Of a stretch of 57,025 nt of DNA, positions 420 through 34,002 are shown one piece after another (position 1 is the stretch's first letter; every line of letters begins with the position of its first letter). Origin of the DNA: Vulcanimicrobiota bacterium (GTDB lineage Bacteria; Vulcanimicrobiota; SpSt-956; JAKJGF01). The notes under the pieces are model-generated. The model searched no databases and was not told where the DNA came from. It worked only from the letters and a program-made list of their open reading frames with translations. The position numbers were made by a program, and so were the translations under genes. The DNA lies in NCBI GenBank assembly GCA_040217665.1, contig JBEHWP010000001.1:1-57025 (forward strand), in the 5' to 3' direction.

Positions 420-1400
420 CTAATTAAGTTCGTTGGTTTTTGTCCGTTTGCTACTACGACCCCCAATTCGAAAATAATTTCGCCAGCCTCTGATAACCGG
501 ATTTAATTTTTCGACTATCTCCTTCAGAGGCATTTGTAATTTACCTCTTAATGTAGCCTGACGTATTACATTTCTTATTCCTTTCATAACTTTCTTTGAA
601 GGCCATAAATAAGGAATAAGTTTTCCAGTAGTTTTCGAATGACTCTTAAAGAAATAGAACTCCAGAAAATCAAAACCTTCTCTTTTAGGGTCAACAATCC
701 TGGTTTTATCCGGATGCAGCGATAATTTAAGAAGTTTCATTATCTGTTCGATGATTTTCTTTGCTTCAATGGCGTTCTGCCTGGTTCTACATATGACGCA
801 AAAATCGTCGGCATATCTGATTAATTTCCCAAATTTACTGTATTTCTCTGTCCAGAACATATCCAATACGTGAAGATATATATTGGCCAATAAAGGGCTT
901 ATCACTGCACCTTGTGGAGAGAGCCAATATCAGTCTTTTTCCTTATTCTATCTTCCATTACACCTGATTTCAGCCATTTTCTTATCAGTTTCAATACTTT
1001 ACGGTCACTTATTTTAGTAGAGAGATAAGAATATCGTGGTTCATATTATCAAAGAAACTTTTTATATCCGCATCTACTACCCACCAACCATAATAAAGTG
1101 ATTGTTTAACTGCAAGAACTGCTTCCTGTGCACTGCGTTTAGGACGGAACCCATAGGAACAATCCTGAAAATTAGCTTCGAATACTGGTTCTATAACTAT
1201 CTTACACGCCTGTTGAACTATTCTATCTTTAACAGTGGTTATTCCGAGCGGTCTTTTTGTACCATCAGATTTTGGAATGTAATACCTGAGAACCGGAAGA
1301 GGTAAATATTCCCCGTTCTTCAGCTCCTTCTCAATTTCTTTCAGATACTTTTCTACACCATAGTCTATAATCTTTTCTGACGTCGAAGGATTATGTCGTT
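420..1400 (-). pseudogene. Decayed group II intron-type reverse transcriptase/maturase (frameshifted, truncated)
   Basis: The minus-strand reading needs three frames. Frame 1: ...SEKIIDYGVEKYLKEIEKELKNGEYLPLPVLRYYIPKSDGTKRPLGITTVKDRIVQQACKIVIEPVFEANFQDCSYGFRPKRSAQEAV...VVDADIKSFFDNMNHDILISLLK(stop). Frame 2: KISDRKVLKLIRKWLKSGVMEDRIRKKTDIGS. Frame 3: LSPQGAVISPLLANIYLHVLD...IRYADDFCVICRT...LNPVIRGWRNYFRIG. This gives RT blocks with the YADD motif plus the maturase X motif. There are disruptions near 1010 and 925, and the N-terminus is absent. Confidence 0.8.
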
Positions 1401-6269: not shown

Positions 6270-8138
6270 ATGATTAGAGAAGGAGATGTTTTATTGAAAA
6301 AAAGTATAATTTTAATTGTTTTTCTATTCATGTCAACTACTGTTTCTTTATCGGCTGAAACCATAGATCGGCTTATTCTGAATTTAGGTTCTTCCGATGA
6401 TACCCTGAGCCAGTATGCAGTATGGAGACTGGTTGATATAGGTTCACAGGCAGTAGACCCTCTTATAAAAGCTCTTAACAGTGATAATAAAGACTTACGA
6501 ATAAGGTCTGCTATGGTACTCGGAATGGTCGGAGATAGAAAAGCATTTCAGCCTCTCATAGATCTGTTGAATGAAGGGGATAAAGAGCTTCAGGCTTCAG
6601 CAATTACTGCCCTGTCCGGTTTTAAAGACAGTGCAGATATGCTTTTCCCCTACCTTTCTAACAGTGATGACACGATCAGAATGAATACTATTGTAGGGAT
6701 TTATAATACCGGAAATACAGCCGCAATAGATAAATTAAAGCCGAAACTTATAGATTTTATTCAAAACGACAGCAGTGCAGACGTCCGTTATTATTCCGTT
6801 AAAATACTTGGAAGTTTTAAAGATAGAAACACAATTTCATTTGTAAGAAATGCTCTGAGAGATGAAGCTGGTAGAGTACGTCTGGGGGCGGCAGAATGCC
6901 TTGTCGGACTGGCAGATAATTCCTGTATAAAACCTCTTATAAATGTTCTCGACGACGAACGGCATATGGTAAGACATCAGGCTATACTTATACTTACTTC
7001 TTTTGGTGACAGTGCAATCAGGGATCTGACAGAAGCATTAAAAGACACGTCTTCATCAGATACAAAAAAAGCTCAGATAGCTCTTGTTCTTGGTAAGATA
7101 AAGAGTCCGAAATCATATGAAGCACTTCTTGAATCATTAAATATTGCTAACGGTGACATAAGACACAATGTTTTCTGGGCTTTGAGTCACAGCGGAGATA
7201 GCCAGGTAGAAAATTTACTTATGGAAGCTCTTTTTCATGACGATTCTGCCATAAGGTTAAGTGCCAGTAATGCTCTTTCAAATATTAATCATGCCCTTCC
7301 TATCGATTATATGCTGAAAGCCCTTTACTGCGACAGGATTGATGTAAGGCGCTTTGCTGCCCTGGAATTATGGAAATGTAACGCTCCTTCATCTATAAAA
7401 CCACTGGTAGATGCAATGAAAGATGAAGATTACTTTGTCCAGAGATATGCGGCAGAATCTTTAATAAATATGAACAATTCTCAGGCAGTGCCTTTACTTA
7501 TAGGAAATCTATCGGCACAGGATGAGGTCGTCAGAGGTATATCTGCTTATGTATTATCCAATATAACACTTGATAGATCTACAGTTCCGTTACTTATCAA
7601 GGCCCTGGGCGATAGTGATTCTGTCGTAAGACTCTATGCAGCAGATGCTCTTGGCAAAACAGGAGATTCCTCTGCAGCAGGCCCTTTAATTGATACCCTC
7701 CGTGATCCCGAACCGGTAGTCATATTATATGCAGTAAAAGCTTTAAAAAATTTTCCTTCCCATAATACTGTTACAGCTCTTATTAATATGGCCGGTCATG
7801 AAGTATGGCAGATAAGGAGTGAAACTGCACGATCCCTTGGAGTATTAAGATCTCCTCTGGCAGTTTCATCGTTAACAGGGTTATTGAATGATACAAATCC
7901 GGATGTGAGAAAATATTCAGCAGAAGCTCTTGGAAATATAGGAGACAGAACTGCAGTTCCGGCCGTTACATTAAAACTTAATGATGAATACAGTTCTGTT
8001 AGAGCCAGTGCAGCAGAAGCTCTCGGTAAACTCGGAGATAAAAGTGTATTGTCTTTACTCAAAGACAGATTAAATAATGAAGAAAGTATTTTAACAATAA
8101 AAGCTATTCAGGAAGCTGTAAAAAAACTTGAACAATAG
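6270..8138 (+). CDS. Exported HEAT-repeat protein (about 18 PBS-lyase HEAT-like repeats)
   Basis: 622-aa ORF. The likely start is TTG 6294, 8 nt after AAGGAG, giving the signal peptide KKSIILIVFLFMSTTVSLSA. Many D..VR..AA.ALG.IGD..AV..LI..L repeats. Confidence 0.75.
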   Translation: MIREGDVLLKKSIILIVFLFMSTTVSLSAETIDRLILNLGSSDDTLSQYAVWRLVDIGSQAVDPLIKALNSDNKDLRIRSAMVLGMVGDRKAFQPLIDLLNEGDKELQASAITALSGFKDSADMLFPYLSNSDDTIRMNTIVGIYNTGNTAAIDKLKPKLIDFIQNDSSADVRYYSVKILGSFKDRNTISFVRNALRDEAGRVRLGAAECLVGLADNSCIKPLINVLDDERHMVRHQAILILTSFGDSAIRDLTEALKDTSSSDTKKAQIALVLGKIKSPKSYEALLESLNIANGDIRHNVFWALSHSGDSQVENLLMEALFHDDSAIRLSASNALSNINHALPIDYMLKALYCDRIDVRRFAALELWKCNAPSSIKPLVDAMKDEDYFVQRYAAESLINMNNSQAVPLLIGNLSAQDEVVRGISAYVLSNITLDRSTVPLLIKALGDSDSVVRLYAADALGKTGDSSAAGPLIDTLRDPEPVVILYAVKALKNFPSHNTVTALINMAGHEVWQIRSETARSLGVLRSPLAVSSLTGLLNDTNPDVRKYSAEALGNIGDRTAVPAVTLKLNDEYSSVRASAAEALGKLGDKSVLSLLKDRLNNEESILTIKAIQEAVKKLEQ

Positions 8139-9249: not shown

Positions 9250-9463
9250 AAATCAATTTTTCCTGGCACCTATCATGACCTTACCATAGCGCACCATATA
9301 ATCTTCAGGTATTACCTGTTCTCTGATAACTGGACAAAAAATAACCATTTCCTGTTCCAATATCCAGAACATTCTTACAGACAGGCAACCAATGTTTTAT
9401 CATGAAACTATAATACCGTAAATATATATCTACCTGCAATTTAAGCTGATCATCTATAATCTA
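9250..9463 (-). pseudogene. Possible relic of a class I SAM-dependent methyltransferase
   Basis: The minus-strand frame reads ...IKHWLPVCKNVLDIGTGNGYFLSSYQRTGNT(stop). VLDIGTGNG matches SAM-binding motif I, but there is no start codon and the reading breaks after about 50 codons. Weak. Confidence 0.25.
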
Positions 9464-9577
9464 TTCGAGAGATAACCAGGTTCCGAATTTATTACTCCTT
9501 TTATGCTTCCTATATGGATAGAGCTTACAGACCATACCTGTTCAAAGATTCCTGAGCAGATACGTTACGGATAAAAA

Positions 9578-11209
9578 TCATATTTCTACAAATTGATTGT
9601 ACACACGTTTCATTATAAAAGGCAGTAATACTAGAGAATCAGTTTTTTCTTTATAAACTCTCAGTATTACCTGTTTCTCGAATTTTTTCAGTTCTTCTTT
9701 CTTTTCCTCAAGCTTTATAGCACACCGGCTTTTTTTATCTTTAATAATATTATTGACTGCTTCGGCAGACGTGTTGAGTTCAATAGAAACAGAAATCATT
9801 CCGTCCATATCTTCCCCGGCCTCTTCTGTACCATCGTTTATCATCAGAACAGGTATATTTAACTCTCTTGCCACAGTTCTCAATTTTATTACAGTTTCCA
9901 CCATGTTATCAGGGAAAATTAAAAAAGGATCTTCCACTATCATTACTATATGAGGGGTATTGAATTTATAACTGAGCTGTTTTGCTGTACTCTCTATAAA
10001 ATCTATATCAATCTTACTTCTTACATTCAGCACTTTTATCCATTGTGCATAGGATTGATATATACTTACCGCTCCGTGAAGTTGTTCCATAAAATCATCT
10101 GCTCTGGGTTCACTCTTCCATTTCTTTGATTCCAGTAAAGCTTCGTTCAATTCCCCCGTTCTGGAAAGAGATTTCAGTATAAGCTCTTCCCTGTCAAATC
10201 GTCTGCTTATATAAAAAATCACTATAGGAAGCTGTCTTGTTGAATTATAAGAAGCAATTTGATCTGCAATCTGGAGAGCAAGGATTGTTCTTTCTACGGA
10301 ATTCCCGCCTTTTATCTCAGTCAGTTTACTGTTTTGTAATCCTCCGTCCAGAAAAAGGTCGAGTGATTTAAACCCTGTAGGTACAGGAGAAAAGGTATCT
10401 GATGTCAGCCATATTAGCATATTATCCAGAACACTGTCATTCATTTCCTGATTATCTACTGTATGATGGACACTTTCTTCTACCGGTATTATTTCTTCTT
10501 TCTTTTCTAAAGGAATTTCAGATTTTTCCGGGCTTTTTTTTATTTCCCCTGTAGGTTTATCGGAGAAATAACTTATAATATCAGGTAAAATCATTGGATC
10601 ATTTATTTTTATTAATTCCAGTGTCATATCAATTGGTATAACTTTTTTACTATCATCCAGGAAAAGTGTATGACCATGTTTCATTCCTTTTCCCATAATA
10701 TCGGAATCTCCGAAAAAAGGAAGCCATGCAAATTCTCCGCATGCACCTTCGTCTGCCCTGCTCTTTTCTTCAGTAGGGTATATGTTTACGTATTCTTCAA
10801 GATTCAATTTATGAAGTAAAACATGGAAAGCTTCTCTGATAAGAGAAGCGGAAGCAGGGCTATCAAAAAATATCCACAAACGAAAACCTGTATCGGTACA
10901 CGATCTTTCTATATATGACCTTATACCGCACTCTGCAAGAGTGCGTTTGACTGAAAAGGTATCTTCCAGATTCTGTTTTTCGTTCTCTTTTTTCTCAAAT
11001 TCCATAAGAGCCCAACAACATGTACCATCTGGAAGAAAATTATAAAATCCTATTCTCTGATGACCTTTCAAATGACGAAGTAAATATCGCGGCATTTCCT
11101 GATTGGGATTTAAAATTTTAAAATGCATGGCCCTACCGCGGGCAACTCCGCCAATTCTATCAGTTCGTCCTTTGAATAATGTCAGTATATCATTTATGAG
11201 TTTATCCAT
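9578..11209 (-). CDS. Fusion of an archaeo-eukaryotic-primase (Prim-Pol)-like N-domain with a DnaB-C/RecA/KaiC-like C-domain; both catalytic signatures look degenerate
   Basis: 543-aa ORF with AAGGAG upstream of the ATG. N-terminal: LLRHLKGHQRIGFYNFLPDGTCCWALMEFEKKE...YIERSCTDTGFRLWIFFDSPASA...GEFAWLPFFG, which follows AEP motif order. C-terminal: SLDLFLDGGLQNSKLTEIKGGNSVERTILALQIADQIA...IVMIVEDPF, a RecA-fold layout in which the P-loop reads GGNSVERT instead of GxxxxGK[ST]. Confidence 0.55.
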   Translation of the reverse strand: MDKLINDILTLFKGRTDRIGGVARGRAMHFKILNPNQEMPRYLLRHLKGHQRIGFYNFLPDGTCCWALMEFEKKENEKQNLEDTFSVKRTLAECGIRSYIERSCTDTGFRLWIFFDSPASASLIREAFHVLLHKLNLEEYVNIYPTEEKSRADEGACGEFAWLPFFGDSDIMGKGMKHGHTLFLDDSKKVIPIDMTLELIKINDPMILPDIISYFSDKPTGEIKKSPEKSEIPLEKKEEIIPVEESVHHTVDNQEMNDSVLDNMLIWLTSDTFSPVPTGFKSLDLFLDGGLQNSKLTEIKGGNSVERTILALQIADQIASYNSTRQLPIVIFYISRRFDREELILKSLSRTGELNEALLESKKWKSEPRADDFMEQLHGAVSIYQSYAQWIKVLNVRSKIDIDFIESTAKQLSYKFNTPHIVMIVEDPFLIFPDNMVETVIKLRTVARELNIPVLMINDGTEEAGEDMDGMISVSIELNTSAEAVNNIIKDKKSRCAIKLEEKKEELKKFEKQVILRVYKEKTDSLVLLPFIMKRVYNQFVEI

Positions 11210-11338
11210 TCATTTAACTCCTTTACAAATATTTCGACTTTGTCATAAATATTATGTACACCTATCTGCCTTATTACCCGGTTCCTTTACACAAAAAGAG
11301 ATTGCAGACTCAAAAATTTTCTTTTCCTGAGCTTCTCT

Positions 11339-13615
11339 TTACCATGGTGCTGCAAAAATATCTGCCTCTTCATGCTGTGAAAGAGATATGGAAAGCTCTT
11401 TTAAATCAGAAGCCAGTTCTAAAACATTTGAATATCTGTCCATAGGTTCAGGTTCAAGACATTTCATTACTATTTCATCAAACCTTGCAGAAATCCTTTC
11501 GTCTATTCCTAAATCCTCTATTCTATAAGGGTTTTTCTGAGAAGGTACAAGCAATTCCTGTATATCGGCTTTACCTGTGGCTCTCCTCTGATGCATAAGC
11601 CCTACTATACCCGGATCGTCATGAATAAAAGGAGGCTGCAATGTCAATAATTCATATATAATACAACCTAGTGAATAGATATCAGCTCTGTGATCAATGG
11701 GAGGCAGTTTCCCGTCATAAGGGCTTGGATATTGTTCCGGTGCAGAATAATAGCTGGTGCCGACAAAACTTTTCGTCCTCTGATAATTTCTTCTGGAACT
11801 GGAAGACATAGAAGATACTCTGCATATACCGAAATCTGTCAATTTAACAGCCCAGTCATCAGTAATCAATATATTTTCAGGCTTTAAATCCCTGTGAACT
11901 ATCTGTTTTTCATTATTATGTACCCTCTCCAGAGCCTGACAGACCTGTGTAATAACAGAAAATATATCACCTATATTATTTACTGTCCCTTTCTGTATTT
12001 TATCTCTGAGGCTTTCTCCGTCAATATATTCCATAGCAAAAACAAATTTATCTTCTTCAAAACCACTGCCCAGTATTTCAACTATATTCGGATGAGGATA
12101 AGGTCTTGCAATAGCTTCAAGGGCACTTACTTCCTTATGGAAGAAACCGACTATCTGCTGACTGCGGCAGAGGCTGTCATGCATCTTCTTTATCGCAACC
12201 GGTCTTCCTGTACCTTTTTCTCTTCCTTTATAGACAACAGCCATTCCGCCTTCTCCTATTATATTTTCTTTCGATTCGTCAAGTTCAAAACGGGCCCAGA
12301 ATTCATTATAGGTACTTTTTATTATCTTCTTTATCGAGGCTCCTCCAAGTTTTACAAGGTTTCTCTGCCAGACAGACAAATCAGTATCACCTGTTTTTTT
12401 GAGTTTCTCCACCAGATTTTCTACTGATTGTATAAAATCTTTATTTATGCCTTTCCCGCCAAGATTTATTATTTTGCTAAAGGCATCTTTCGTTTCCTCT
12501 ATAAAACCTCTCTGAAGATATATATTACCGGCAGTAATCAGAGACTGACGACGTATTTCGTTCATGTCACTGTTGATTGTAATTTCGTCCCTTCCATCGA
12601 TACCCCATGATCTGAGAAAAGAAACTTTTTTATTTCTATCTCTTTCGTCTTCCCAGGAACTTATCATACATAAAATTTCCTTGAATTTACCAAGTGCTTT
12701 ATCAATGTCACCTTTTTGATACATAATCTTTCCAAGACAGAACTTTGCATAAATATTATTACATTTTATATCAATGTCCTCCATTATTTTCTGGGAAGCA
12801 TCTATATCTCCAAGTTCATATTTAAAGAAACCATACCTGCTTTTAAGAGCCATATTATCGGCACCTGTTGACAGACTGTGTTCAAGGAGAGAAACAGCTT
12901 TCTTGAAGAGTTTATTTTTTTCATAAAGTTTCAATAATTTTAATATATAAACTGTTTTCTCTGAAGGATCAGGAAAATTTAAATTACAGATTCTTTCAAG
13001 CATTTCAATTTCCACCATAGAGTCATGGTCGGAATTTTCCATGGCTTTCTCATATATTTTTACACTTCTGTCAAACATATTCTCATCTCTATAAAAGTCT
13101 CCTAATTTTCTGTAATAGGCCATATTACCGGAATCAATAGTTATAAGTTTAAGCATTGTACTGACAAAGCTTTTCTTTTTACCGAGCAATAACTGTATCT
13201 GGGCCAGATGATAAAGGCCTGAAGTATCTTCAGGATAATACCGAAGGGCTTTCAGGAAATGTTTCTCTGATTTTTCCAGAAGATTTTGCTCTCTGTATTT
13301 AAGGGCTATCTGTATATGACACTGCTTTAAACTGTAATCAATGGATATTCTTTCACTTTCTGCGAACTGATCTTTAATCTGTGCTATTTCCTCTTCCATT
13401 TCCTCCTGTATGCCAAGCACTTCATTGAATTTCTGTATTCTCTCCAGTTTTTCTGCCTCTTTAAGCTTTTCTTTTAATTTTTTAATTTTCTTATCTTCTA
13501 TAGATATTTTTCCTTTTTTAGCTTTATGAAGCAATATAGCCATAGTTATACCTATACTGCCTATTAATATATAAGAAAACATTATAATTTCACAGCCTTT
13601 CTTTGAAACAAACAA
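11339..13615 (-). CDS. Membrane-anchored TPR-repeat Ser/Thr protein kinase (Hanks type, kinase domain C-terminal)
   Basis: 758 aa. One N-terminal TM segment ([17 protein letters not shown]), a coiled coil and TPR-like repeats. The canonical kinase motifs are present: [32 protein letters not shown]. Confidence 0.85.
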
Positions 13616-13694
13616 CAGATATAATTCAAGAATATGCCATTAAAAATGAAAATTCCTGTACCTTTTATATGAGAATTGTGAAGAGTGAAGGGAT

Positions 13695-13749
13695 GATAAA
13701 TTATTTAGATAAACTGCCTCTACATAATGTTCATCTAAATCTTTATTTT
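13695..13749 (-). promoter_or_regulatory. Copy 1 of a ~55-nt upstream element (TTTAGATGA...GTTTATCTAAATAATTTAT), 79 nt 5' of the TPR-kinase ATG
   Basis: Plus strand: gataaattatttagataaactgcctctacataatgttcatctaaatctttatttt. It contains the inverted half-sites tttagat / atctaaa. About 85 percent identical to 15661-15715. Confidence 0.6.
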
Positions 13750-13857
13750 TGACTGGATTTTCGGGATTAAAGAATTACCGGGATTAAAGATTTCAAGTAA
13801 AGTAATTCTATTTATCATCCTGGTAATCACATAAGTCCTATAAATCCCGGTCAAAAG

Positions 13858-14052
13858 CTACTCTTTCCATGGCAATAGAATTGCTTCTGTAGGGCAAATT
13901 TTTGCACATTCTTCTTTCCTCTGACAGGCATCGGGTCTGACAACCTTTGCTTTTTCATCTTCTCCTATGGCTATTACATCATTGGGACATATAGCGACAC
14001 AGGCTTTACACCCTATACATAACTCACCATCAATCTCAGGAAATTCATTCAT
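13858..14052 (-). CDS. Small single-cluster [4Fe-4S] ferredoxin
   Basis: 64 aa with CIGCKACVAICP plus a distal C...CAKICP. The layout resembles Thermotoga/Pyrococcus-type mono-cluster ferredoxins. Confidence 0.75.
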   Translation of the reverse strand: MNEFPEIDGELCIGCKACVAICPNDVIAIGEDEKAKVVRPDACQRKEECAKICPTEAILLPWKE

Positions 14053-14135
14053 ATATATTCACCGGCCTTTTATTTAAATATATATCATATATCAGAATTA
14101 TAGGTTTTGACATAAATGCTCCGGAACCAGACATA

Positions 14136-15614
14136 TTATTTTGGTTCAAATTCTTCTTCTGTTATTAACCATTCTCCGTTTTCTCTGGTAAACTTTAATA
14201 TTTTATATCCGTTGCTGACAAATGCGCCATTAAAATACTGTTCAAACTTGACTTCCACTTCAGTATCACTTACAGAAGTAACAGTAAGATCACCTACTAT
14301 ATCTACCTGTGGTTTCCCGGCAAAGACTTTATCAGATACTTTCATATCCATCCAGTCTGTCAGATTTTTAGTTTTGGAATTGGTGAATTTCTCAGAATAA
14401 AAGTTTTTAAAGTTATCTAAATCTCCTTCCTTCCAGGCAGAAACCCAGGAGTTAACCTTTCCCTTTATTATTTCATCAGTATGTTCAGCCTGTACCGAAG
14501 GAGTTGCTGAAGGTTTATCCGGCGTTGGAGTTGCAGATGACACTGAAGGAGACGATACTGCCGTCCCACCTGAAGGGGTTTTTGCTTCTGCTACAGGAGC
14601 AGGTGTAGGTGCTATAAGCTGTGCCACCTGACGAAACGGAGTTTCACCTTCCTTAACATATACATTAGAAATCTTCCATTTATCATCTGTTTCATTTTTC
14701 CATGCTTCTATTTTCAGTGTTTCTTCTATAAAATCACAATCAAGGAATATTTCTTTTTTACCGGCTTCAACTTCTCTGGCTTCTACAGTAAAACTCCCCT
14801 GATCATGGCGGGCATTCTTTTTCAAATCATCCATTTTACTCTTCCCTATGCCGATTATTACCAGTAAGATTACTATTATAGTACTCAAAACAGTTATTAT
14901 AATTTTAGGATGATAGAAACTGAAATAAAAACCTTCATCTTCCTGTTCCTGTTTGTTTTCTTCATCCAGTTCTTCTTCTTTCACAGGTACTTTATTTTCT
15001 TTATCCTTTTTTCTTTCCCGGTTTTGCTCTACCATATCAACCAGTTTTTTCATTTTCGGTATATCATCATTGTTGTCACAGTAAATTACATATCCCTTGC
15101 TCGGATATGCTTTTTCTCCATCTTTGTCTGTTCCGAAAATAGCAAAATCCTTTGCAACTGATTCCACTATAAGTAATACATACCAGTCTGCATTAAAAAA
15201 ACTCACATGTGTGTCCTGATCGTCAGGAGAAAGTTCTACGCCCCACCCGGGATGTGAATGATACCAACCTACAATCCTGTCTTCAGGGAATTTCTCTTTT
15301 ACCTCTTCAGTCAACTTATCGAATTCTTCTTCGGAAAAGGTAAATTTTTTCTGCAGGCCCATTCTTGATACAGGAAGGATGGTTTTTATATCAAGATAGA
15401 GGAAATCATCATCTATTCTTTTATCAGAATATATATTCCCGATAAGGAGTCCACCCATTTCGTTAATTGTATCTTTCAATCCATGTTTCATAGCTTTTGC
15501 TATTGTCAGGTAATTTATAAAGATTTTATATTTCTCTTCTATAGCAGAACCTATAATTATACACCTGTTTTTAGGTGGAGTCGGTTTCTCATTTGTTGCA
15601 AGATTATCTTCCAT
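14136..15614 (-). CDS. JAMM/MPN+ metalloprotease domain, single TM helix, Pro/Thr/Ser linker and C-terminal NTF2-like (SnoaL-like) domain
   Basis: 492 aa with GGAGG upstream of the ATG. Complete JAMM signature: NEMGGLLIG (Glu) and GWYHSHPGWGVELSPDD (HxHx7Sx2D). TM segment: IIITVLSTIIVILLVIIGIG. The C-terminal VNSWVSAWKEGDLDNFKNFYSEKF...GYKILKFTRENGEWLITEE is NTF2-like by pattern. Confidence 0.7.
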   Translation of the reverse strand: MEDNLATNEKPTPPKNRCIIIGSAIEEKYKIFINYLTIAKAMKHGLKDTINEMGGLLIGNIYSDKRIDDDFLYLDIKTILPVSRMGLQKKFTFSEEEFDKLTEEVKEKFPEDRIVGWYHSHPGWGVELSPDDQDTHVSFFNADWYVLLIVESVAKDFAIFGTDKDGEKAYPSKGYVIYCDNNDDIPKMKKLVDMVEQNRERKKDKENKVPVKEEELDEENKQEQEDEGFYFSFYHPKIIITVLSTIIVILLVIIGIGKSKMDDLKKNARHDQGSFTVEAREVEAGKKEIFLDCDFIEETLKIEAWKNETDDKWKISNVYVKEGETPFRQVAQLIAPTPAPVAEAKTPSGGTAVSSPSVSSATPTPDKPSATPSVQAEHTDEIIKGKVNSWVSAWKEGDLDNFKNFYSEKFTNSKTKNLTDWMDMKVSDKVFAGKPQVDIVGDLTVTSVSDTEVEVKFEQYFNGAFVSNGYKILKFTRENGEWLITEEEFEPK

Positions 15615-15660
15615 TTAGTTACCTCCGCTGAGTACCGCAACAGATACGTCAGTGCCCGTT

Positions 15661-15715
15661 TATAAATTATTTAGATAAACTGCTTCTAATTAATTTTCAT
15701 CTAAAGCCTTATTTT
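15661..15715 (-). promoter_or_regulatory. Copy 2 of the same upstream element, 46 nt 5' of the JAMM gene ATG
   Basis: Plus strand: tataaattatttagataaactgcttctaattaattttcatctaaagccttatttt. A second shared module, ttaaaaatgaaaa(a/t)tcct(a/g)tacc, lies at 15721-15744 and 13638-13662. Confidence 0.6.
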
Positions 15716-16078
15716 ACGCTGTTAAAAATGAAAAATCCTATACCATTAAATTATTCAATCATTCAATCAGTAAACTCATTACTCACAGCTTATTCTTCGT
15801 TCGGACAATCTTTCATATTGATTGGTACCAAGGTTAAAATTATTCTCTTTAAACGAATCACGTTCCGGTAAAATATCAATATTAAGGAACGTTTAAGATT
15901 TTTTGGAATTTATGTTGAAATTATAAAGTATTTTCTTTAATAGGTCAATCAATTTTATGAACTCATTGACTGTATTTTTACAGTTAACGGGGAGAACTGT
16001 AAAATGCGGTAAATTAAATAGACATAAAAACAGTTTTTCTTTCACCGGGATTATAGATTTTTCGGAAGAGCCTGGCAG

Positions 16079-17035
16079 TTACCAGAATTTCCACCATGCT
16101 TTTTTCTCCTCTTTTCCCTTTTCCCATGTTTCAAGAAGTTGCTCTTTTTCTTCTTTCATCCTGGCCATAAACATGGCTTTCTGTTCTTCTAAAGCCTTTT
16201 CTTTTTCCTCAAGGAACCTGCCATACTGGGTCTGTATGATTTCTTCTTTTTCTCTTATTCTTTCCTGTAATTCTGTTTTGTCTCTGGAAAGGATCTTCAA
16301 ATTAGTGGCATTATCCATTAAAACTTTTTCTATTGAAGTGCCGGGTGAGTTTTTTAAATTATCCTGCAAAGTCCGGTTTTCTTCCTGTAATGTAATATTT
16401 GCTTTTTCCAGATTTTTTATTGCTTCTGAAAGAGGTGGCAGAGATTTTAAATCATCCTGAAGAATCTGATTTTCTTCTTTAAGCTTCAGGTTTTCTTCTC
16501 TGACAATATCAAGATCTTTCGCCGTTTCTAACAGAACAGGTAAAGACTTTAATTCTTTCTGAAATATTTGATTTTCTTCCTGCAGTTTCCGGTTTTCTTC
16601 AAGTAATGTTTCTAATTTTTCTTTTAAAAACTGGTTTTCATGTTCAACTCTTCCGAGCCTGTATAAAGATTGCTGTTCAACAGGCTTTACAAGCTCGGCC
16701 TGTTTGGTTGAAAAAAATTCCTCCATTACTTCTCTGATCTTTTCTGCTGTAAGCTGTTCTTCATCCTTTACAACATTCACTCTGTCAGTATTATCTTCTC
16801 TGATTTCATTATCTTTACTGACTTTATCAGTGCAAATAATATTAAAAATTCTTTCTATATCTGTTTTCTTAACTGTAAGATACTCTTTACCGTTAATCAC
16901 CTTTTTTTTACCTGAAATGGCTCCTCTTTCAATATATTTGTAAATAGTACTCTGACTCTTACCGGTAAGAATAGAAGCTTCCAGTATAGTTATGTTACTG
17001 CTGTTATTCATTATATTACTCCATAAAAATCTCAT
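16079..17035 (-). CDS. Excisionase/MerR-type HTH protein with a long coiled coil containing internal repeats
   Basis: The likely start is ATG 17011. HTH: ITILEASILTGKSQSTIYKYIERGAISGKK. This is followed by the repeated unit KL.EENQI.Q..LKSLP.L.E..K.L (see repeat 16328-16600). Confidence 0.6.
   Translation of the reverse strand: MRFLWSNIMNNSSNITILEASILTGKSQSTIYKYIERGAISGKKKVINGKEYLTVKKTDIERIFNIICTDKVSKDNEIREDNTDRVNVVKDEEQLTAEKIREVMEEFFSTKQAELVKPVEQQSLYRLGRVEHENQFLKEKLETLLEENRKLQEENQIFQKELKSLPVLLETAKDLDIVREENLKLKEENQILQDDLKSLPPLSEAIKNLEKANITLQEENRTLQDNLKNSPGTSIEKVLMDNATNLKILSRDKTELQERIREKEEIIQTQYGRFLEEKEKALEEQKAMFMARMKEEKEQLLETWEKGKEEKKAWWKFW
16328..16600 (-). repeat. In-frame tandem repeat of about 105 nt (2 full copies plus 1 partial) inside the coiled-coil gene
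   Basis: Protein-level copies are RKLQEENQIFQKELKSLPVLLETAKDLD, LKLKEENQILQDDLKSLPPLSEAIKNLE and ITLQEENRTLQDNLKNSPGTSIEKV. The nucleotide similarity is visible, e.g. ctgattttcttctttaagcttcaggttttcttc versus ttgattttcttcctgcagtttccggttttcttc. Confidence 0.7.
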
Positions 17036-19707: not shown

Positions 19708-20112
19708 ATGTTAATTAAAAGAGATAAATATTACTGGTATAACAGAGGAGAAAAATTGCTTGATTCTCTTAATGCCTGTAATATGTCATATGATGAAATA
19801 TATGCAGAAGCTATTAGATGTTATATGAAAGCCATATCTCTTGATCCTCTGTTTGTTGATGCATGGAATGCCAGAGGTTATGTTTTATATATTCTCGGCA
19901 TGTATAAAAAAGCCATTATATGTTTTAATAAAGCCATAGAAATCTCTCCTGAGAATTTAGACGGATGGTCCAACAGAGGACTTACTTTATATAAAACAGG
20001 GAATTATAAAGAAGCAATAAAATGTTATGATAAAGTGATAGATATGGAACCTGACTTTCCCAATGCCAGACATAACAGAGAAAAAATTTTCGAAATATTA
20101 AATAAAAAATGA
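19708..20112 (+). CDS. Small TPR-repeat protein
   Basis: 134 aa with about 3 TPR units (AWNARGYVLYILGMYKKAIICFNKAIEISPEN, GWSNRGLTLYKTGNYKEAIKCYDKVIDMEPD). Its TGA overlaps the next ATG (ATGA at 20109-20112). Confidence 0.75.
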   Translation: MLIKRDKYYWYNRGEKLLDSLNACNMSYDEIYAEAIRCYMKAISLDPLFVDAWNARGYVLYILGMYKKAIICFNKAIEISPENLDGWSNRGLTLYKTGNYKEAIKCYDKVIDMEPDFPNARHNREKIFEILNKK

Positions 20113-21098
20113 TTTCAGAGAATCCTCTTTTACAAACTGTTTTAAACTATTTCCTTTATGGATGTTATTGTATATTTCTTTATTTTCTCGGCATCTGGGT
20201 ATTTCAGGATGCAGACAGAAGAGGTCTTAACGGTTATTACTGGTGTCTTTTATGTATATTTTTTCCCATAGGTGCTATACCTGTTTATCTGCTCTTAAGA
20301 CCGAAATCTATTCTTAAAATATGTCATGACTGTGATACAGGGGACCATGACAGCCTTCTATGTTATTACTGCCCTCATAATACGTCACCTGTACGTCCGC
20401 CATTTAAAACCTATATGTTTTATCTCTTGAAAGGTTTACTTTACAGTGCCTTTATGACAGTTAAATTTTTCTTTTTTGTTTTTCTGAATGATTTCTATGA
20501 AAAATGTTTTATTCTGAGAAGTAAAGAACTGAGGAAAATGAATTCATTGCTTAAAAAATATTATTTTCTTAAAAGTCCTGTAAATATGGCCCGGGTTACA
20601 GAAAAAGAAATGGAACGGCCATGTTATTCTCTCACCTATGGAGAAACTCCCTATTCTACAGCCATTTCTATTTTTAACACAGTACAGGTTAAAAATAATG
20701 ACGTATTCTTTGATCTTGGCTCAGGAACAGGAAATGTCACATTATTTGTAAATATTTACTTTCATATAGAAAGCACCGGCATTGACCTTGTGTCTTACTT
20801 CATACAAAAAAGCAATCTTATAGTAAAGGAAATGAAACTTGAGAATATCAGGTTTATAGAGGGGGATTTTTTAGAGGCAGACCTCTCGGAAGGTACTATA
20901 TTTTATATGAATTGTCTTACCTTCAACCAGGAACTGAGGAAAAAACTCGCTGAAAAAATAATAAATTCAATAACAGAAGGCTCCAGAATTATATCTATAG
21001 GTTATCCCCTGGGAAATTTTCATTTACTGGACAAAAGAACATATTTCTTTTCCTGGGGCTGGGAAGATGTTTATATCCAGGAAAAAAGGTTGGCATAA
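20109..21098 (+). CDS. Membrane protein: PLDc_N-like 2-TM module, zinc ribbon and C-terminal DOT1-like SAM-dependent methyltransferase
   Basis: N-terminal: WVFQDADRRGLNGYYWCLLCIFFPIGAIPVYLLLRP, then CHDCDTGDHDSLLCYYCPH. C-terminal: YGETPYSTAISIFNTVQVKNNDVFFDLGSGTGNVTLFV...FIEGDFLEADLSEGTIFYMNCLTFNQELRKKLAEKI...GSRIIS. This aligns by eye with the DOT1 core YGETSFDL...DDLFVDLGSGVGQVVLQV...ERGDFLS...[22 protein letters not shown]...GGRIVS. Confidence 0.65.
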   Translation: MISENPLLQTVLNYFLYGCYCIFLYFLGIWVFQDADRRGLNGYYWCLLCIFFPIGAIPVYLLLRPKSILKICHDCDTGDHDSLLCYYCPHNTSPVRPPFKTYMFYLLKGLLYSAFMTVKFFFFVFLNDFYEKCFILRSKELRKMNSLLKKYYFLKSPVNMARVTEKEMERPCYSLTYGETPYSTAISIFNTVQVKNNDVFFDLGSGTGNVTLFVNIYFHIESTGIDLVSYFIQKSNLIVKEMKLENIRFIEGDFLEADLSEGTIFYMNCLTFNQELRKKLAEKIINSITEGSRIISIGYPLGNFHLLDKRTYFFSWGWEDVYIQEKRLA

Positions 21099-32776: not shown

Positions 32777-32853
32777 TCTGGATAGAGACACTTTACGCGT
32801 CACGAATAATAATTTTAAAGCATAGGAATTGTCATTTTTAATTCTGTAAATCA

Positions 32854-32898
32854 GGCATTAGATAAAATTTTATCTACAGGCATTTATCTAAATAATTT
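32854..32898 (+). promoter_or_regulatory. Copy 3 of the element in gene-matched orientation, ending exactly at the radical SAM ATG; includes a perfect 18-bp palindrome
   Basis: The sequence is ggcattagataaaattttatctacaggcatttatctaaataattt followed by ATG. TAGATAAAATTTTATCTA (32859-32876) is a perfect palindrome. The 3' part, tttatctaaataatttat, is identical to copies 1 and 2. Confidence 0.55.
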
Positions 32899-34002
32899 AT
32901 GTATCAAATAAACAGTATAAAAAATAATACAGAAGAATTTATTTCATCCCTGCACCATGGTAATCCCTATAAACCATTGAGTGTAAAAATAAAACTTACA
33001 TGGAACTGTAATCTCTCCTGTGTTATGTGTAATTCTACAAGACAGATGAGAGGAACAGAACTGGGATATAAAAGAGTCGTCGGACTGGTGCAGGAACTTG
33101 CAGAAATGGGTTGCAAAAAAATACATTTTTCAGGAGGAGAACCTCTTCTGTGGGAAGGTTTATTTAATATTGCCGGGTATGCAAGAAACAGAAAACATAT
33201 AAAAGTAAATATTACAACAAACGGAACTCTCCTGAACAGGGAAATGGCAAAAAAATCAATTTACAGTCGATTTAAAACCATATCAATTTCACTTGACTCT
33301 CCTGATGAGTCAATTCATGACAGGATCAGAGGTGCAGGAAACTGGAGAAAAACCATAGAAGGGATAAAAAATCTTGTAAAAGAAAAAGAACTGGCTGAAA
33401 GTGGAACTAAAATAAGACTCAATGTTGTTGTAAGTAAATTAAACTATAAAAGCCTTCACAAACTGCCTGAAATGGCATCTTATCTGGCAATAGATTATCT
33501 ACTACTCATACCCGTAGATGATCATCTCGGTATGAATTTTAAATTAAATTATGACGAACTCCTTGAATATAATACAGAAATAGGGCCTGCCCTTGATGAA
33601 AAAGGAACTAAATATAACCTGTGGGAATGGCCTGACCAGGCTTTCCCTTTCGGAAAAACTTTTTCATCTCTTGAATTTTCTTCAAAAGGGTTGTATGCTA
33701 TGGGTATATATGAAAAAATTCCCTGTTTTGCTCCCTGGCTTCATTCTTTTATATCTCCCAGAGGGAGGGTATTTATCTGCTGTATGACAAAAGATATAGG
33801 AGTACTCGGGAAAATTAAAAAGAAAAATTTCAAGGAAATATGGGAAGGTGACCTTTATAGACAGGCCAGGCATATAATGCTCAAAACACGCTTCCCTGAA
33901 TGTTTCAGATGTGATAGCTTTTTAAAGGAAAACATACAGATATGCAGATATTTATCTCATAATGATAACAGTAATGATACAGGGTTTCTTGCGATGAAAT
34001 AA
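32899..34002 (+). CDS. Radical SAM enzyme with a Cys-containing SPASM/twitch-like C-terminal extension
   Basis: CNLSCVMCN (CxxxCxxC), GGEPLL, and a C-terminal CFAPWLHSFISPRGRVFICC...FPECFRCDSF. Confidence 0.7.
   Translation: MYQINSIKNNTEEFISSLHHGNPYKPLSVKIKLTWNCNLSCVMCNSTRQMRGTELGYKRVVGLVQELAEMGCKKIHFSGGEPLLWEGLFNIAGYARNRKHIKVNITTNGTLLNREMAKKSIYSRFKTISISLDSPDESIHDRIRGAGNWRKTIEGIKNLVKEKELAESGTKIRLNVVVSKLNYKSLHKLPEMASYLAIDYLLLIPVDDHLGMNFKLNYDELLEYNTEIGPALDEKGTKYNLWEWPDQAFPFGKTFSSLEFSSKGLYAMGIYEKIPCFAPWLHSFISPRGRVFICCMTKDIGVLGKIKKKNFKEIWEGDLYRQARHIMLKTRFPECFRCDSFLKENIQICRYLSHNDNSNDTGFLAMK

Follow-up and report, generated by a model that had tools for sequence, protein, structure and literature searches.

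The question raised by this locus is whether five adjacent genes with conflict-type domains form one system or something smaller set among unrelated neighbours. The genes lie on the minus strand of a 57,025-nucleotide (nt) stretch from a Vulcanimicrobiota bacterium (contig JBEHWP010000001.1, positions 1 to 57,025; hereafter the window). In order they encode a helix-turn-helix (HTH) coiled-coil protein (P5), a membrane JAMM/MPN+ peptidase (P4, the JAB gene), a 4Fe-4S ferredoxin (P3), a Ser/Thr kinase with TPR repeats (P2), and a protein that joins an AEP (Prim-Pol) domain to a DnaB-family domain (P1, AEP-DnaB). An initial annotation made from the sequence alone had taken them for a single system. 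Its five consecutive open reading frames (ORFs; 16079-17035, 14136-15614, 13858-14052, 11339-13615 and 9578-11209) are all real, and its domain calls, made by eye, were borne out by Pfam profile searches of P1-P5. Comparison with related loci shows that the region is a composite, in which unrelated, lineage-specific neighbours (the ferredoxin, the JAMM protein, the HTH protein and a methyltransferase relic) surround one conserved two-gene module.

The two genes of that module, both on the minus strand, and the evidence used for each are as follows.

11339..13582, minus strand: core gene 1, TM-TPR Hanks-type Ser/Thr kinase P2 (TM, transmembrane; Pfam, motif alignment, gene adjacency)
9578..11209, minus strand: core gene 2, AEP + DnaB-family protein P1 (Pfam, PDB/fold matches, motif table, dN/dS)

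Five neighbouring genes, one conserved pair

The loci of the lineage were compared in three groups: group A (the window and L005-L010), group B (L001-L003, L011 and L019) and group C (L004, L012 and L016-L018). Group A members share 87-97% amino acid (aa) identity and have the gene order HTH-JAB-ferredoxin-kinase-AEP, within a synteny of the whole region that reaches the flanking housekeeping genes. Synteny of the whole region is expected anyway at this identity, which counts against reading the five-gene order of L005-L010 as the sign of a system. In group B (P1 64% and kinase 68% identical to the window) and group C (P1 44-46%, kinase 64%) the kinase is again followed by AEP-DnaB, with no JAB, ferredoxin or HTH gene adjoining. 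The group B pair is flanked by a divergent cluster of NuoE/F-type Fe-S oxidoreductases and a convergent glycosyltransferase, and the group C pair by a beta-propeller-like protein and DUF2085 upstream and radical-SAM, BMC, NifS and NifU genes downstream. The group B orthologue of the JAB gene (P0172, 64% identity) belongs to a separate locus, where it follows a DOT1-like methyltransferase and faces PmbA/TldD; ferredoxin, HTH, kinase and AEP genes are all absent nearby.

The proposal that all five proteins constitute one co-regulated conflict or signalling system draws on their common strand and close spacing, on the order kept in L005-L010 and on repeat modules upstream of both the kinase and JAB genes. 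It fails because the genes are not co-localised in related genomes beyond those at 87-97% identity, and because the repeat is found ahead of a radical-SAM gene too and, in L008, at other places; we consider such a system very improbable. The more specific idea of a kinase- and JAMM-controlled module built around a pseudo-primase survives in half: the tie between the kinase and P1 stands, and control by the JAMM protein does not, with JAB absent beside the pairs of groups B and C.

Wherever the sequence of a locus reaches far enough in both directions, the kinase gene is directly followed on the same strand by the AEP-DnaB gene, 60-290 nt away, and this pairing is kept in three lineage groups whose flanks differ completely. 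Its members are a TM-TPR-Hanks kinase of ~747 aa and a downstream AEP (Prim-Pol) + DnaB_C protein of ~530-555 aa. Both families are extremely scarce. Homologues of P1 fall into seven clusters in an index of 5.8 billion proteins, and a profile HMMER search of 1.84 billion representatives returned three full-length representative clusters. The non-kinase N-terminal half of the kinase (the TPR module) gave five clusters in the 5.8 billion proteins, all of ~745 aa, and in this reverse search all three clusters looked up have an AEP-DnaB_C gene directly downstream. All pair loci come from metagenome-assembled genomes (MAGs) or metagenomes of one lineage, variously labelled Eremiobacterota, Vulcanimicrobiota or Eremiobacteraeota; the window itself makes up a complete contig of one such MAG. 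Literature searches found no description of a Ser/Thr kinase paired with a primase-helicase-like protein. The kinase and AEP-DnaB genes are thus a rare, undescribed pair confined to one uncultured bacterial lineage.

The AEP-DnaB protein is a predicted pseudo-primase-helicase

P1 begins with an AEP domain (aa ~1-200), which a disordered linker joins to a RecA-like domain of the DnaB family (aa ~270-543). The first matches the Pfam family AEP-TOTE (PF22548) over aa 43-191 (2.5e-18, 67 bits, cutoff 27) and the second matches DnaB_C over aa 276-457 (9e-9). The closest solved structure to the N-terminal domain is the CAPP Prim-Pol (phmmer 2e-6; Foldseek 3e-10, TMt ~0.7), and the fold matches of the C-terminal domain are to DnaB, RadA and RAD51 paralogues, the last being among the top matches. 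The AlphaFold model of P1 has a pLDDT of only 61 and was used for fold-level matches, not for residue geometry.

Prim-Pols hold their two catalytic metals with an acidic triad drawn from motifs I and III, and their elongation nucleotide site is made by motif II (PMC10345425). The P1 family was aligned with ~33 broader AEP relatives and CAPP. The relatives have [DE]x[DE] as motif I, SK..G.YH as motif II and E[IV]FPK as motif III, with the motif II His in all ~33 and the motif III Glu in most. The P1 family retains motif I as E70-F-E/D72, ExE being a normal variant among relatives. In motif II the His is replaced by Arg110 and the SK lysine is gone; in motif III N, T or K takes the place of the Glu and FPK has become YPT-E; the GN Asn is also gone. 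P1 hence lacks the full catalytic triad and the motif II His of an AEP enzyme. The DnaB_C domain lacks both a Walker A of the form GxxxxGK[ST] and the catalytic Glu: where an intact DnaG-DnaB relative (P0025) has GGAGSGKT, P1 has GGNSVERT and P0007 has GENPIDNI, and where P0025 has AMEMS, P1 has SRRFD, with Glu changed to Arg-Arg and the Walker B Asp retained. Since new, invariant residues now stand in both catalytic centres, P1 is predicted to be an inactive pseudo-primase-helicase, in agreement with the suspicion that it was a degenerate Prim-Pol/RecA-like protein.

This degeneration has not been accompanied by relaxed constraint. The dN/dS of P1 against four close relatives is 0.086-0.115 (about 0.09), and at 45% identity over 130 columns of the family alignment are invariant, among them those of the replacement residues R110, T146 and E147. 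P1 is under strong purifying selection.

The nearest outgroup proteins are ~700 aa long and consist of AEP, a linker and DnaB_C with an intact Walker A. Their linker is Cys-rich by eye and has no Pfam match; Pfam recognises PriCT_1 solely in the related P0031, and found no PriCT/Zn domain in P1. The DnaG-DnaB protein P0025 is 28% identical to P1 over the RecA domain and shares its C-terminal NQFVE[IL]. Because these are its nearest relatives, the P1 family is taken to descend from mobile-element primase-helicases, having lost the linker domain and both active sites, as was first supposed when a mobile-element replication module was named as its source.

Among the outgroup, P0023, P0024 and P0029 (~680-700 aa) have an intact DnaB Walker A and degenerate AEP motifs, with IFD or NFQ in place of DxD and Q or N in place of the His. 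The sequences suggest that inactivation was stepwise in the clade that gave rise to the P1 family, the AEP domain first and the helicase second. The linker of P0007 holds an insert of ~150 aa that looks DnaB-N-like by eye and has no Pfam match.

The partner kinase

P2 has a strong Pkinase match (2.9e-51, 174.8 bits), TPR repeats and a single N-terminal TM helix. Its ORF extends to a TTG at 13615, and as homologous kinases begin at Met12 the gene probably spans 11339-13582 (747 aa) and not 11339-13615. The Hanks motifs (G-loop, VAIK Lys, alphaC Glu, HRD, DFG and APE, here SAPE) are all present and invariant across seven family members. The activation loop is unusually Ser-rich and also invariant in the family, and a C-terminal DxFxxPW motif is conserved. 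A basic stretch follows the N-terminal helix, which by the positive-inside rule suggests that the TPR array and the kinase domain face the cytoplasm.

Related genomes encode numerous large kinases of the Hanks type to which arrays of HEAT, PQQ/beta-propeller or TPR units are fused (L001 20747-21647, L004 18248-21298 and L020 17320-17512), which indicates that the lineage has an expanded repertoire of eukaryote-like kinases.

Inheritance and allelic recombination

Groups A and B differ to a similar degree in all genes compared (DOT1-like methyltransferase 60%, JAB 64%, P1 64% and kinase 68% identity). As these divergences match and synteny is stable within each group, the pair appears to have been inherited vertically from a common ancestor in a small Eremiobacterota/Vulcanimicrobiota clade. 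Its flanks in the window are ordinary chromosome, with HEAT/TPR proteins, an M48 peptidase, a DegT aminotransferase, two-component systems, a CoA-transferase and an amidase. The vicinity of the pair is free of integrases, tRNAs, CRISPR arrays and defence genes, and Rfam and tRNA scans of the window gave no matches. Near the left contig end there is a truncated group II intron reverse transcriptase/maturase ORF (420-905, minus strand), of which the C-terminal part of RVT_1 and GIIM are present.

Superimposed on this descent is an exchange that affected one member of the pair. The window and L010 are 96.7-97.7% identical at the nucleotide level through the region, except for a sharply bounded segment of 87.8% identity. 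The features concerned are these.

9330-11303 (L010 9909-11876): recombination tract of 87.8% identity, covering the spacer, P1 and the methyltransferase remnant
11210..11338, minus strand: kinase-AEP intergenic spacer, 129 nt (sequence, blastn, sliding identity)
9256..9478, minus strand: relic of a class I S-adenosylmethionine (SAM) methyltransferase (tblastn, two fragments, 67% and 64% identity)

The spacer carries an AAGGAG ribosome-binding site before the AEP ATG, forms the left edge of the recombined segment and differs from L010 by an indel of ~82 nt. The dS of P1 against L010 is 0.44, and that of every neighbour is 0.05-0.11. From this difference and the sharp tract it follows that the P1 allele was replaced by recombination independently of the partner kinase. 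In L010 (ORF 11710-12504) and L008 an intact SAM methyltransferase of 264 aa lies downstream of the AEP gene; the two fragments in the window match it, and the methyltransferase relic initially noticed to the left of P1 is therefore genuine.

Comparison with known systems

The view that no named system fits the locus was upheld: scans of all proteins against PADLOC, NCBIfam and PHROGs gave generic domain matches and no named system. The PADLOC kinase models mad6 and PD-T4-6 match the kinase, and CRISPR-associated PrimPol models match P1.

A resemblance to TOTE was considered, as the AEP domain of P1 matches a Pfam model named after a TOTE effector and a TPR protein is its obligatory partner; here, however, the TPR repeats are fused to a kinase and the AEP domain is predicted to be inactive. 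PMC12458937, citing Aravind, Iyer and Burroughs 2022, expands TOTE as TPR-OB, TBP, Effector. Pfam found no OB/cold-shock domain in the five proteins or in the conserved neighbours of the pair, and no member of the TBP family was among the Pfam matches of the window proteins or the Pfam lists of neighbours. PF22548 also matches generic AEP+DnaB, AEP+AAA_25 and AEP+DUF5906 primase-helicases, and a genuine AEP-TOTE+SNF2 protein belongs to a toxin-antitoxin island that lacks these partners. By that definition, with no OB, no TBP and a generic model, membership in TOTE was rejected.

The AEP-DnaB primase-helicases of plasmids, phages and integrated elements (e.g. P0020, P0031 and P0058) share the domain order, the AEP clade (PF22548) and the DnaB_C fold of P1, and are identical to it at 32% of positions in the AEP domain and 24-28% in the RecA domain. 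Unlike them, P1 has lost the PriCT/Zn linker, the Walker A GK[ST], the catalytic Glu, the motif II His and the motif III Glu, and its gene, part of the chromosome and passed on vertically, always has a kinase gene as its partner instead of replication or mobility genes. Within P1 the RecA module resembles RAD51 paralogues and inactive KaiC-like proteins, which retain a RecA/DnaB fold for structural or regulatory purposes although their ATPase motifs have been lost or weakened. It differs from these in showing no orthology at the sequence level, in being fused to a dead AEP domain and in its kinase partner.

CAPP, the closest solved structure to the N-terminal domain (PDB 7NQD/7NQF/7P9J), functions as a DNA primase-polymerase with active-site residues DxD, His and Glu and has its gene in cas operons, and CAPP type A1 also joins TPR repeats with an AEP domain (PMC8211822). 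In P1 the catalytic residues are substituted and the TPR repeats are on the separate kinase protein. Membership was rejected on the NCBIfam PrimPol_Msp score (38.6 bits, cutoff 200); the window contains no CRISPR arrays, and there are no Cas domains among the neighbours.

Phage defences that use kinases (Stk2, PD-T4-6, MAD6 of MADS, PglW of BREX) share with P2 an active Hanks-type kinase domain. The PADLOC matches of this kind are strong, yet they cover the generic kinase domain only. MADS, BREX type 2 and PD-T4-6 were rejected. The NCBIfam scores for MAD6 (109.9 against 460) and PglW (53.1 against 990) were far below cutoff, and the genes that accompany the kinase in Stk2, PD-T4-6, MADS or BREX systems are all missing. 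No methyltransferase, PglX/Z or other MADS gene is conserved with the pair. To our knowledge, none of Stk2, PD-T4-6, MADS and BREX includes a pseudo-primase-helicase partner. CBASS-Cap3 and JAB systems associated with Ubl conjugation were also rejected, as the neighbours contain no CD-NTase and no E1, E2 or Ubl domains.

Neighbouring genes

Three genes of group A lie upstream of the pair and do not belong to its core.

13858..14052, minus strand: 4Fe-4S ferredoxin P3, 64 aa (Pfam; in group A loci only)
14136..15614, minus strand: JAMM/MPN+ peptidase P4 with a TM helix and an extracytoplasmic NTF2-like Cds6_C domain (Pfam)
16079..17035, minus strand: HTH and repetitive coiled-coil protein P5 (Pfam, PHROG, internal repeats)

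P4 matches JAB (9e-11, 42 bits) and, at its C-terminus, the NTF2-like Cds6_C domain (1.2e-10). Its JAMM motif is intact, HSHPGWGVELSPDD conforming to the pattern E ... HxHx7Sx2D. In group B (L020 6850-9512) the JAB-TM-NTF2 gene is immediately preceded, on its own strand, by a DOT1-like methyltransferase gene; the window has the orthologues of the two (the methyltransferase at 20109-21098, plus strand) divergent and 4.5 kb apart. An inversion or rearrangement in group A is suggested to have made JAB a neighbour of the kinase pair.

P5 has a weak HTH_17 match (0.005 in the window, 1.7e-5 in the L005 orthologue) and matches an excisionase PHROG (5e-4), consistent with an excisionase/MerR-type HTH. 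No other gene in the region evolves as fast (66-83% aa identity, against ~90% for its neighbours). It also contains internal direct repeats of ~92-102 nt (16362-16609) that encode repeated heptad segments of the type ENQILQxxLKSLP.

The pair adjoins Fe-S-related genes in all three groups: the ferredoxin in the window (13858-14052), NuoE/F-type oxidoreductases in L001 (5154-7405), and radical SAM with NifS/NifU in L004 (11853-15925). This is probably a coincidence in Fe-S-rich anaerobes.

Repeats upstream of the kinase and JAB genes

Two related sets of repeat modules precede the kinase and JAB genes, and a third lies elsewhere in the window.

13633..13793, minus strand: two copies of a 17-mer, the 54-nt module D3 and the 33-nt module D8, ahead of the kinase gene
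15662..15747, minus strand: D8 and D3 in the opposite order, ahead of the JAB gene
32819-32900, plus strand: third D8+D3 copy, upstream of and abutting a radical-SAM/SPASM gene (32899-34002)

The 54-nt copies (13696-13749 and 15662-15715) are 89% identical and the 33-nt copies (13633-13665 and 15715-15747) 82%, far above chance, so the element of ~55 nt and the second module that had been reported ahead of both genes are real. Their use as an argument for co-regulation is weakened by the copies at unrelated genes and the differing module order. L008 carries D8+D3 at 6904-6986 and 16145-16227, one copy preceding the ferredoxin gene and another standing at the latter position. Because copies lie upstream of unrelated genes, the repeat is not evidence for co-regulation specific to this region; it is an intergenic or regulatory element that this genome carries at dispersed sites. 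D3 contains an imperfect inverted repeat of ~11 nt (TTTAGATGAAC ... GTTTATCTAAA), in which one base pair of the copy at L008 16184 has changed in a compensatory way from G:C to A:T. The element may be an operator, a hairpin in the 5' untranslated regions of a regulon, or a dispersed intergenic repeat. A promoter and terminator scan was uninformative in this AT-rich DNA (41 found, 32 expected).

Proposed role of the pair and alternatives

Our preferred interpretation, to which we assign a probability of roughly 0.55, is that the pair is a vertically inherited signalling module of a kinase and a pseudoenzyme, in which AEP-DnaB was exapted from a mobile-element primase-helicase. An active Hanks-type kinase would be tethered to the inner face of the membrane by its one N-terminal helix and would extend a long TPR array into the cytoplasm. 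The pseudo-primase-helicase would keep its fold, and probably also oligomerisation and the binding of nucleic acid or nucleotides. As the dedicated partner of the kinase it could dock on the TPR array as a sensor or adaptor, as a substrate, or as both, and a DNA- or replication-related cue may thereby be converted into Ser/Thr phosphorylation at the membrane. Several points weigh against this interpretation. The interaction of P1 with the kinase, its ligand and the phosphorylation target are deduced from gene adjacency alone, and independent observations of the pairing are few (three groups of one lineage, all MAGs or metagenomes). The AlphaFold model of P1 is of moderate quality. The AEP domain also keeps the acidic pair of motif I and has gained the invariant E147 and R110, so that non-canonical catalysis or nucleotide binding is conceivable.

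The main rival is a role in defence, in which the two genes would form an anti-phage or anti-plasmid system. The dead primase-helicase would be a decoy or sensor of the DNA or replication proteins of invaders, and the kinase the effector, which would shut the cell down by phosphorylation in the manner of Stk2. Defence systems repeatedly contain Ser/Thr kinases, and likewise AEP domains, the mad6, PD-T4-6 and CRISPR-associated PrimPol models of PADLOC match the two proteins, and the AEP clade includes TOTE effectors from toxin-antitoxin islands. The AEP gene evolves faster than the kinase (45% against 64% identity in group C) and, together with its methyltransferase neighbour, was swapped by recombination for a diverged allele beside a variable flank, traits that are frequent at defence loci. 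Against this, the flanks of the pair are free of defence and mobile genes in all groups, gene order within each group is stable, and the genes have diverged to the extent that vertical descent would give. The pair is also restricted to a single small lineage instead of being patchy across phyla, the NCBIfam MAD6 and PglW scores are far under threshold, and dN/dS indicates plain purifying selection. Support for defence is limited to the kinds of domain present, the quicker evolution of P1 and the exchange of its allele, and we regard it as unlikely. We know of no kinase-coupled decoy of replication proteins among the prokaryotic defence systems described. That the pair is a new immune or surveillance module of this kind, in which the doubly inactive protein mimics invader replication machinery or senses aberrant DNA and so activates the membrane-tethered TPR kinase, is a speculative idea with rather low odds.

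Two further explanations turn on P1 itself. It could still be an enzyme, a non-canonical primase/polymerase or nucleotidyltransferase working through E70, E/D72, E147 and R110 in repair or replication restart under kinase control. The retained motif I, with ExE normal in active-looking relatives, would allow this, and the invariant R110, T146 and E147 suggest a pocket that was remodelled and not abandoned, in which the Arg could bind triphosphate as the His does. The third metal ligand, however, is replaced by N, T or K, with differences between family members. The SK Lys and the GN Asn have gone as well, and the PriCT/Zn domain for binding the initiating nucleotide, present in relatives (P0031, and Cys-rich linkers by eye), is missing. 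With the partner helicase ATPase domain also predicted to be clearly dead, retained activity seems improbable. Alternatively P1 might be the decaying remnant, without current function, of the replication module of an integrated mobile element; the initial annotation had offered domesticated remains of such a module as one reading of the region. Its descent from primase-helicases of that type, the methyltransferase relic next to its gene and the excisionase-like HTH protein upstream would fit such an origin. Yet the ORF is intact in every lineage down to 45% identity, and the dN/dS of about 0.09 and the many invariant residues contradict decay. No integrase, att site or other mobile-element gene accompanies P1, which is strictly partnered with a conserved kinase, and a remnant is hardly credible.

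Significance

The locus has two consequences for annotation. Same-strand clusters of conflict-type domains should be compared with neighbourhoods beyond close relatives before a system is called, and the Pfam name AEP-TOTE by itself is no sign of a TOTE system, because PF22548 matches ordinary primase-helicases. If the pairing of the kinase with AEP-DnaB is functional, it would be a clear case of exaptation, in which a replication enzyme of mobile elements lost both catalytic centres and was kept by strong selection as the fixed partner of a eukaryote-like kinase. It would also add a class of pseudoenzyme partner to bacterial Ser/Thr kinase signalling, and would provide a testable handle on signalling in the Eremiobacterota/Vulcanimicrobiota, an uncultured phylum with few characterised proteins.

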